Positions 33,560-35,662 of a DNA stretch of 64,000 nucleotides are shown here, in pieces. Source of the stretch: Mycobacteriales bacterium (GTDB lineage: Bacteria; Actinomycetota; Actinomycetes; Mycobacteriales; JACQDL01); NCBI GenBank assembly GCA_035476575.1, contig DATILL010000124.1, positions 9,039 to 73,038 on the forward strand. The letters are read 5' to 3'. The position numbers and the translations under genes were made by a program. Position 1 is the stretch's first letter; each line of letters opens with the position of its first letter. The notes beneath the pieces were generated by a model, which saw only the letters and a list, made by a program, of their open reading frames with translations, had not been told where the DNA came from and made no database searches.

Positions 33560-35662
33560 TCAGAAGTCGACCGGCACCCCGGCATCGCCGGAGTCCAGCC
33601 GCGGCCCGACGCCGAGCTTCTCCTTGATCTTCTTCTCGATCTCGTCGGCAAGGTCGGGGTTGTCCCGCATGAACTGCCGGGCGTTCTCCTTGCCCTGCCC
33701 GAGCTGGTCGCCTTCGTAGGTGTACCAGGCGCCGGACTTGCGGATGAAGCCGTGCTCCACCCCCATGTCGATCAACGAGCCCTCACGGCTGATACCGCGC
33801 CCGTAGATGATGTCGAACTCCGCCTGCTTGAACGGTGGGGCCATCTTGTTCTTCACCACCTTGACGCGAGTGCGGTTGCCCACCGCGTCACCGCCGTCCT
33901 TCAGCGTCTCGATCCGGCGGACGTCGAGCCGGACCGAGGCGTAGAACTTCAGCGCCTTGCCACCGGTGGTCGTCTCCGGCGAGTTGTGCACGACCACGCC
34001 GTCGGCCAGGTAGTTGTGCGAGCCCTCCACCTCGATGTCATAGCGGTGCATCAACTGGGTCCTGGGCTTGACCCGGACATCGCGCACCACGGCCGGCACC
34101 GGCAGCAGGACCGGATCGGTGAGCTCGGGCCGGACCGCGCACCGGCCGCGAAACCGCTCCAGCAGCGTGTGCTGCATGCAACCAGGGACGTACGGCGCGA
34201 CGAGCTCGTGCAGCTTCGCCGCCTCATCCTTGGCGAAGACCAGGAACGCCTGCCGCCGGACACCCTTGACCACCAGGGTCGGGCGCAGGTCGAACTGCCC
34301 GACCAGGTGCTCGACCAGACGTTCCCGGGAGCCCTCGCTGAGCGCCTGCACGCGGATCTCGCTGCGAACGTCGCCGTTGCGGGCCCGGACGGTGAACGAC
34401 CCGGCATCGGCGTACCAGATGGCCAGCGACAGGGGGGTGAGCGCTTTGAGGTACTCCCACGAGAGCACCTTGGCACCGCCGATGTAGACGGCCTCCCGCA
34501 GCTCGGCCAGCTCCGGGAGCGGCAGGTCGACGCATACCGCACCCTTGGCGGACGAGCTGCGGATCTGCTCGATGTTGCCGAACAGCGACGCCTTCCAGTC
34601 CAGGTACTCGGCCTGGCGGGCGCCGTGGCCCAGCCGGAACCGGGTGCCCAGGCTGCCCGGGGCACGGCTCGGGGACAGCGCCGCCTCCCCCATCAGCCCA
34701 CCGAGGACCACCTGCCACTGCTGCGGGCTCAGCCGGTGGGTCTGGGAGAGCATGACCCGGTCACCGGGCAGCAGCTCGCCGGCCTTCCGCCAACCGCCTG
34801 GCGTGCGGACCAGATGGTTGCCGGTCAGGCCGAGCTGAGCACGACCGTTACCCCCCGGCCGGGTCACGGTGAGCTGGAGGAACTCCTCGGTCACGCCGTT
34901 GTCGAACCAGTTGACGACCTTCTTTGGGACGATCCTGCCCTGCTCGGGGTCGTAGGAGAGCACCTCGACCGGCAACCGCTGGCTGACAATCTTGCCGATC
35001 TTCTCCTGTGAGCCGTCGGCCAGGGTGACCCGGGTGCCGTAGGACAGGCAGCCGAACATCACGCCGATCTTCTCGCGGAGCTGGTTGATGAAGATGGCGG
35101 TGGTGCCGGCGTTGTTGAGCGCGGCGGTGATCTTGCGTAGCGCCTGGCTCATCAGCCTGGCCTGCAGGCCGACGTGGTTGTCGCCCATCTCGCCCTCGAT
35201 CTCGGCACGGGGCACCAGCGCGGCCACCGAGTCGATCACGATCACGTCCAGCGCGCCGGACCGGATCAGCATGTCGGCGATCTCCAGCGCCTGCTCGCCA
35301 GTGTCCGGTTGGGAGACAAGCAGCGCGTCAGTGTCCACCCCGAGCGCCTTGGCGTACTCCGGGTCAAGCGCGTGCTCGGCGTCGATGAACGCCGCGATGC
35401 CGCCGGCAGCCTGCGCCTGCGCCACGGCGTGCAGCGCGACGGTGGTCTTGCCGGAGGACTCCGGACCGTAGATCTCCACGATCCGGCCACGGGGCAGGCC
35501 ACCGATCCCGAGGGCGACGTCGAGAGAGATCGAGCCGGTCGGGATCACCTGGACGGGCTGGCGCGAGTCGTCGCCCAGCCGCATCACCGAGCCCTTGCCG
35601 TGCGCCTTCTCGATCTGGGCGAGCGCGACCTCGAGCGCCTTGTCGCGGTCCAGTGCTGGCAT
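33560..35662 (-). CDS. recA: Recombinase RecA precursor (204-aa N-extein + 356-aa intein + 140-aa C-extein)
   Basis: 700-aa [21 protein letters not shown] and [21 protein letters not shown] run to KIGVMFG. The sequence resumes at [23 protein letters not shown] and continues to the C-terminus. Confidence 0.95.
33983..35050 (-). mobile_element. RecA intein with LAGLIDADG-type homing-endonuclease domain (RecA-b / M. leprae-type insertion site)
   Basis: Starts at Cys (TGC, complement of 35048-35050) right after GVMFG. Ends VVVHN immediately before Ser of SPETTTGG (codon 33980-33982). Contains Hint blocks [21 protein letters not shown] and [20 protein letters not shown], plus [10 protein letters not shown] and [11 protein letters not shown]. 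Confidence 0.9.

Follow-up and report, generated by a model that had tools for sequence, protein, structure and literature searches.

The stretch analysed here, hereafter the window, is 64,000 nucleotides (nt) of DNA from a Mycobacteriales bacterium (GenBank assembly GCA_035476575.1, contig DATILL010000124.1, positions 9,039 to 73,038). It carries a recA gene whose open reading frame encodes 700 residues, 356 of which form an insert within the RecA sequence. To judge from its boundaries, profile matches and predicted fold, the insert is a class-1 intein. It belongs to a known and widespread family, and the unusual feature of the window copy looks to be an endonuclease that has apparently been inactivated. 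The gene and its parts lie as follows.

33560..35662, minus strand: recA precursor open reading frame, 700 residues plus stop (TIGR02012 recA, 548 bits; Pfam RecA and RecA_C)
35051..35662, minus strand: N-extein, RecA residues 1-204, ending ...REKIGVMFG (from translation)
33983..35050, minus strand: intein, 356 residues, Cys1 to Asn356, precursor residues 205-560 (from translation, profiles and structure)
33560..33982, minus strand: C-extein from Ser+1, mature RecA residues 205-344 plus stop (from translation)

The insert sits in frame between GVMFG and SPETT, with Cys205 of the precursor as its first residue and ...DGVVVHN as its end at residue 560. A preliminary description of this DNA had placed a 356-residue insert at 33983-35050 with these same ends, and our coordinates reproduce it exactly. 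In the unspliced precursor, the Pfam RecA match is broken into two pieces. Removal of residues 205-560 regains one contiguous full-length match: the 344-residue product aligns with positions 1-262 of 262 in a single stretch (476 bits), together with RecA_C. The earlier identification of the insert as an intein therefore stands, as exact excision restores RecA and the intein-free recA of a near relative is shorter by exactly 1068 nt. The 2.1-kilobase (kb) frame stays open in a genome of 73% GC, and the GC content at third codon positions (GC3) is 0.92 in the intein and 0.93 in the exteins. The annotation should read intein-containing recA with a mature RecA of 344 residues, and neither a 700-residue fusion nor a pseudogene. 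Beyond correct annotation, we grade the importance of the recA intein as small.

The exact precursor protein is on record only on one 131.7-kb contig of an ENA metagenome assembly, and 80% of sampled words of the window DNA are present in a single soil-metagenome run from 2019. In this source run, a 1147-nt unitig without any differences bridges both intein junctions at a depth of 20.7, equal to that of the unique flanking pieces. As one unitig crosses both junctions at flank depth, they are not an assembly artefact. An assembly chimera, which we had considered, was excluded by this unitig and by a GC3 like that of the exteins.

The splicing domain

The splicing (Hint) domain is formed by the two ends of the intein, with the catalytic residues in the following segments.

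34736..35050, minus strand: N-terminal Hint subdomain, intein residues 1-105, with Cys1 (NCBIfam intein_Nterm; M. tuberculosis RecA mini-intein structures)
34814-34825, minus strand: block B, T76-G-N-H79, within the N-terminal Hint subdomain
33983..34090, minus strand: C-terminal Hint subdomain, intein residues 321-356, with Asp338 and His345 of block F and His355-Asn356 of block G (NCBIfam intein_Cterm)

The Hint splicing motifs quoted in the preliminary description are all present, and the insert passes both NCBIfam intein profiles, with 36.7 bits for intein_Nterm (cutoff 24.5) and 32.3 bits for intein_Cterm (cutoff 15.6). Its score with Pfam Intein_splicing lies below the gathering score (31.0 vs 35.8 bits). 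Residues C1, T76, H79, D338, H345, H355 and N356 are invariant in 94/94 relatives and are all found in the window intein, which bears out the earlier view that the splicing residues are intact at every catalytic position. The C-extein starts with the Ser+1 nucleophile.

An AlphaFold2 model of the intein, built from a 15-sequence alignment, has two parts and a mean predicted local distance difference test score (pLDDT) of 85, with a predicted template modelling score of 0.78. The modelled Hint domain (residues about 1-105 and 321-356) superposes on crystal structures of the Mycobacterium tuberculosis RecA mini-intein with a root-mean-square deviation of 1.1-2.1 Å at 35-37% identity. From the conserved residues and the fold we infer that the precursor would splice to functional RecA. 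The M. leprae RecA intein is said to splice in mycobacteria but not in E. coli, so a splicing test in E. coli could mislead.

The endonuclease domain

Between the two Hint subdomains lies a homing-endonuclease domain, whose motifs and altered positions are given below.

34091..34735, minus strand: LAGLIDADG_2 homing-endonuclease domain, intein residues 106-320 (limits approximate), judged probably catalytically dead (Pfam PF03161, Foldseek, conserved-column count)
34676..34705, minus strand: LAGLIDADG motif 1, with the Glu122 codon GAG at 34685-34687; model helix 109-120
34394..34426, minus strand: LAGLIDADG motif 2, with the Ala216 codon GCC at 34403-34405; model helix 206-216
34364..34393, minus strand: site of a 7-residue in-frame deletion, TVRAR/NGDVR, in the strands after motif 2, where relatives have KGLQERT-like residues
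34166..34168, minus strand: Thr295 codon ACG, the position of a Lys (YKLL) in 94/94 relatives

Both LAGLIDADG-like motifs reported earlier are present, and in the intein model they form two helices, each followed by strands, in an alpha-beta domain. The family assignment differs from the LAGLIDADG_3 model named in the preliminary description, which we dropped: the insert matches LAGLIDADG_2 (PF03161) instead, end to end (1-168/168, E 1.5e-27). By Foldseek, the endonuclease part best matches I-WcaI and I-SceI (E 7e-12 to 2e-10; template modelling score, normalised to target, 0.67-0.69), with further structural matches to TliVMA, PI-PfuI and PI-SceI.

The domain was compared with two sets, 94 complete relatives taken from the protein search and 71 inteins from species genomes. 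Position 122 is Asp in 93/94 relatives and Glu in the window. Position 216 is Asp in 92/94 and 66/71 and Ala in the window, and position 295, where the window has Thr, is Lys in 94/94 and 70/70. The D-D-K combination is found in 65 of the 71 genome-derived inteins; six have lost one or two of these residues, and the window alone has lost all three. Set against both groups together, about 165 relatives, the window is still the only copy to combine E122, A216 and T295. Owing to the 7-residue deletion after motif 2, the window intein has 356 residues and not 364-365. All 13 closest inteins, at 70-75% identity, keep LMGD, W-Y-x-D-D-G, YKLL and the seven KGLQERT-like residues. Other near-invariant columns are also changed in the window, for example G228, C233, D251, P290, Y294, P298 and F310. 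When columns at least 85% conserved are counted, 20 of 92 are changed in the window endonuclease, the highest number among 95 sequences (median 4, next highest 15), and 6 of 82 in its Hint domain (median 3).

In a phmmer alignment to I-SceI (1r7m), the motif-2 stretch of the window pairs with LTPMSLAYWFMDDG, placing Ala216 opposite Asp145. The D145A variant of I-SceI is fully defective even with Asp144 in place next to it, and K223I is a nickase (PMC3928301). In the window copy, the acid at the end of LAGLIDADG helix 1 is Glu122, which is acceptable; that at the end of helix 2 is absent (Ala216), as is the active-site Lys equivalent to K223 (Thr295). The Asp of the GDGKK element, an alternative acid, is absent as well. 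The endonuclease is thus probably dead, as far as its residues can tell. The preliminary description had suggested this as a possibility from the Ala in motif 2; that residue stands out against the relatives as it had proposed, and with E122, T295 and the deletion added, the predicted loss of activity is better founded than on the original argument.

Substitutions at one or both catalytic Asp occur in about 6-8% of site-b RecA inteins, in forms such as G-D-K, D-Y-K and A-E-K (L030, L048, L052, L063, L065 and L066 among the genome loci; P0037, P0049 and P0111 among the proteins). Endonuclease loss is therefore a recurrent event within the family.

Family, intein-free alleles and gene neighbourhood

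Searched with the insert alone, more than 1,240 proteins matched. The best 120 of these are all RecA proteins, and the junction GVMFG/C...HN/SPETT is identical in 120/120. RecA insertion points a to e were defined by Topilina et al. 2015 (Table 1, PMC4513877). That table gives site b for the mycobacteria M. leprae TN (206-570), M. rhodesiae JS60 (207-570), M. thermoresistibile and M. xenopi; beyond Mycobacterium, it is given for Verrucosispora maris, two Saccharomonospora species, Thermomonospora curvata, Isoptericola variabilis and Thermobifida fusca, and also for a Thiovulum (a proteobacterium) and a cyanobacterium (PMC4513877). In the M. rhodesiae JS60 protein, we find the intein at exactly 207-570, in agreement with the published coordinates. 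The window intein aligns with it from residues 1-356 to 1-364 at 56.7% identity (E 1e-144), and is 55-56% identical to the inteins of M. flavescens, M. novocastrense, M. simulans and M. alsense. The placement at the M. leprae-type RecA-b site, put forward in the preliminary description, is confirmed by the junction shared with the 120 relatives and with the published site-b intein of JS60. By sequence, then, the window intein is a member of the RecA site-b family; since the comparison was made with JS60, its likeness to the M. leprae intein is indirect.

The family is large. When one genome per species was scanned, at least 565 species genomes proved to have a relative of the window intein, and a search started from a Mycobacterium member gave more than 100 mycobacterial precursors, M. 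rhodesiae JS60 and M. flavescens among them. Among the matches listed, the closest inteins are from Pseudonocardia and Mycobacteriales metagenome-assembled genomes (70-75% identity), and other hosts include many Micromonospora, Plantactinospora, Nocardiopsis, Saccharomonospora, Pilimelia, Halopolyspora and an Anaerolineae genome. In 9 of 80 loci an intact intein seemed to be lacking. This we set aside as an effect of the motif filter, the tblastn matches there being uninterrupted and without stop codons; one match (L031) is cut at a contig end and another (L076) begins at query residue 14. The preliminary description had regarded a RecA-b intein outside Mycobacterium as noteworthy for horizontal spread. 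This significance was set too high, because such inteins were published in 2015 and are present in hundreds of species. Their distribution does show wide movement of site-b inteins, a point already made in the literature.

Intein-free recA alleles, which the preliminary description had proposed to look for in close relatives, were found. The nearest relatives of the spliced window RecA, at 92-94% amino acid identity and 343-345 residues, are intein-free. One of them, on a 40-kb contig (L082), has DUF3046, recA, recX, rny and HAD genes in the same order as the window. Its recA is 90% identical in nucleotide sequence over both exteins, and the alignment skips exactly 1068 nt. The empty site reads CTGCGCGAGAAGATCGGCGTCATGTTCGGC followed by TCGCCGGAGACCACC..., or in short form CTGCGCGAGAAGATCGGCGTCATGTTCGGC followed by TCGCCGGAGACCACCACCGGCGGCAAGGCG. 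Among the matches listed, the exteins of intein-bearing genomes are at most 88.8% identical to those of the window. The correlation between intein and extein identity is weak (r = 0.27). Such patchy presence among relatives is what the homing cycle predicts. Contigs of the source soil run hold the intein-bearing form of recA only, although contigs cannot show absence of the other; joints skipping about 1068-1099 nt were seen only in other soil runs, and come from the recA of other organisms, 90-95% alike.

One distant host is Anaerolineae bacterium CG2_30_64_16 (L029; MNXL01000028.1, 4001-5092), whose RecA exteins are about 64% identical to those of the window. Its site-b intein shares 63% identity with the window intein, which equals the closeness of many actinobacterial inteins. 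As this RecA is only 64% identical yet the intein reaches 63%, the sequences look like the product of transfer across phyla. Two other labels are doubtful: the RecA exteins of P0251, labelled Candidatus Sericytochromatia, are 93% identical to those of M. rhodesiae, and those of L009, labelled Acidimicrobiales, share 86% identity with the window. Both metagenome bins are probably mislabelled or contaminated.

A phage carrier of the site-b family is unsupported by a tblastn search of 50,697 phage records, which returned remote inteins only (22-28% identity, at most 27.5%). These remote inteins interrupt RNA ligases and also UvsX-like recombinases, homologues of RecA (matches H9-H12, from Erwinia phage pEa_SNUABM_17 and Yersinia phage fHe-Yen9-02, and H1-H7). 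The RNA ligase hosts are Pseudaeromonas phages and mycobacteriophages.

Around recA, the genes run in the order Lhr helicase, a DinB/MDMPI-like gene, DUF3046, recA, recX, RNase Y and HAD hydrolase. Two features adjoin the gene.

32931..33545, minus strand: recX, immediately downstream of recA (RecX_HTH1/2/3)
35781..35796, unstranded: LexA (SOS) box-like palindrome TCGAACAGGTGTTCGG, which precedes the recA start codon by about 120 nt (motif match)

The palindrome lies just downstream of the small DUF3046 gene. LexA-box-like palindromes number six in the window against 1.6 expected, and three such palindromes (at 14044, 14060 and 14125, spanning 14044-14140) stand ahead of lexA itself (14171-15046, plus strand; LexA_DNA_bind and Peptidase_S24). 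The boxes at lexA, together with the one upstream of recA, suggest a standard actinobacterial SOS regulon. Near recA and divergently transcribed is the Lhr-type helicase of 1561 residues (37173-41858, plus strand; DEAD, Helicase_C, WHD_Lhr). Elsewhere in the window, an open reading frame of 1266 residues (5791-9591, minus strand) matches ThiC (ThiC-associated and ThiC_Rad_SAM) only over residues about 713-1221; its N-terminal part is probably a spurious extension in high-GC DNA, and the true start is likely internal.

Proposed history and related systems

We consider it likely that the element is a site-b class-1 intein that can still splice, has a dead endonuclease and has reached the decay stage of the homing cycle. 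Its host gene would be a recA under SOS control, in an uncultured soil actinobacterium of Pseudonocardia/Mycobacteriales type. The whole 700-residue precursor would be translated first; the Hint domain would then excise the 356-residue insert by way of Cys1, Thr76/His79, Asp338, His355-Asn356 and Ser+1, joining Gly204 to Ser and giving a normal RecA of 344 residues. The LAGLIDADG_2 endonuclease would formerly have driven homing into the intein-free site, ...GGCGTGATGTTCGGC followed by TCGCCGGAGACC..., before its active site was lost in the window lineage through Asp to Glu in motif 1, Asp to Ala in motif 2, Lys to Thr and the 7-residue deletion. With no double-strand break for homing, the element would be inherited only vertically, as an immobile passenger that still splices, which corresponds to the degeneration stage of the cycle. 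Since a frameshift would abolish RecA itself, decay would be confined to missense changes and deletions that keep the frame, and the likely long-term fates would be a mini-intein or precise loss.

Several observations weigh against this account and are best set beside the alternatives they would favour. Some well-conserved Hint-region residues are changed in the window (N23S, F60L, F73L, R332Q, S333L and F337Y), and the last five residues of the intein model have a pLDDT below 50. These could be taken to mean that the gene is broken, with an insert that does not splice, a recA pseudogene or a metagenome assembly artefact at the junction. We hold this to be very improbable. All known catalytic splicing residues are intact in a frame open over 2.1 kb, the exteins are close to RecAs that look functional, the single unitig of even depth spans both junctions, and the Hint domain has no acceleration in rate.

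Other observations concern the endonuclease. By mutagenesis of the M. leprae intein, Asp193 of the GDG element, and not Asp218, is reportedly the functional second acidic residue; the predicted inactivation holds whichever Asp is catalytic, because the window intein is without both equivalents. Thr295 falls opposite I-SceI Lys223 through a two-residue ungapped extension of a weak alignment (E 0.6), within a structural match that is strong. Some LAGLIDADG enzymes natively use Glu for catalysis, such as I-OnuI at E178 (description of PDB 6uwg), and E122 alone thus proves nothing. The endonuclease could then still be active, or a nickase, and the intein mobile, with Glu122 as one acid and Asp215, which is kept, or another acidic residue replacing Asp216. 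Glu122 also occurs in one other family member (P0111), and the model predicts a good fold for the full-length domain, with a pLDDT of about 85-95 over most of it. Yet the same D-D to D-A change abolishes I-SceI activity (PMC3928301), the invariant Lys and seven residues after motif 2 are gone, and the window is an extreme outlier at conserved endonuclease columns, so that retained activity appears unlikely to us.

Substitution rates point in the same direction as decay but weakly, and we give them a supporting role only. Relative-rate counts were made with ten outgroups and 13 close relatives. Endonuclease changes unique to the window are 1.6-2.2 times those of each of the 13, most of the tests being individually not significant (p 0.03-0.27), and the Hint domain has no consistent excess of unique changes in the window. 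By the Nei-Gojobori method, the ratio of nonsynonymous to synonymous substitution rates (dN/dS) for the endonuclease is 0.27 in window pairs vs 0.17 in control pairs, and for Hint 0.16 vs 0.14; these values are rough because dS is near saturation (about 1). The endonuclease value of 0.27 is still well below 1, which also suits an active enzyme; on the sequences, the domain may either have been inactivated recently or still be constrained, for example for folding or DNA binding.

Such constraint would also be expected if a dead endonuclease were kept within an intein retained for host use, either to switch RecA activity through conditional splicing or to bind DNA without cutting it. The M. tuberculosis RecA and P. 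horikoshii RadA inteins are published cases of conditional splicing (PMC11377839, PMC4513877), and in the window the endonuclease domain is not deleted and 72 of its 92 conserved columns are kept. If this were so, the locus would hold a naturally domesticated RecA intein under selection and not a decaying parasite. The nearest relatives, however, manage without an intein, the window intein showed no feature that would be peculiar to a new function, and its retention has a simpler explanation, in that only precise deletion restores RecA and the inactivation may be recent. We therefore rate host use as slightly less probable even than an active endonuclease.

Should the favoured reading of a splicing intein with a dead endonuclease be correct, the locus would be a clean natural example of homing-cycle degeneration, in which the splicing residues are intact and the endonuclease carries equivalents of the I-SceI D145A and K223 changes. 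Empty alleles occur in the closest relatives, and intact copies a little further away. Triplets of empty, active and dead alleles of this kind would be of use in population-genetic models of homing, and could supply inteins that only splice.

Among known systems, the mycobacterial site-b inteins, for which M. leprae PI-MleI and the M. thermoresistibile intein may be named, share with the window the RecA host, the Gly/Ser insertion point, the C1...HN/S+1 chemistry and the architecture of Hint plus LAGLIDADG_2. End-to-end identity is 55-57% over the five members compared, M. rhodesiae JS60 and the four other species named with it above. The window intein is nine residues shorter (356 vs 364-365 residues), and where the mycobacterial inteins have D122, D217 and K303 in their own numbering, it has E122, A216 and T295. 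It also lacks their GDGKK Asp, and its host is not a Mycobacterium. Other actinobacterial site-b inteins, from the published species and from metagenome genomes (L001-L016), have family and junctions in common with it; these copies keep D, D-D and K and the seven residues, whereas the window intein does not.

The M. tuberculosis RecA intein PI-MtuI also resides in RecA, and its Hint domain is the closest solved structure. PI-MtuI has 440 residues and is inserted after KNK, at residue 251, with Cys+1 where the window intein has Ser+1. It occupies site a, at 252-691 (PMC4513877). Profile and structure-sequence comparisons detected no sequence match between the endonuclease regions of the two inteins. 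For that domain the best structural matches are I-SceI and I-WcaI, the former sharing the LTPxSLAxWxMDDG and YKL motifs. These enzymes are free-standing, monomeric, intron-encoded and active, whereas the window endonuclease is nested in an intein and would carry the natural equivalents of the engineered D145A and K223 mutations of I-SceI.

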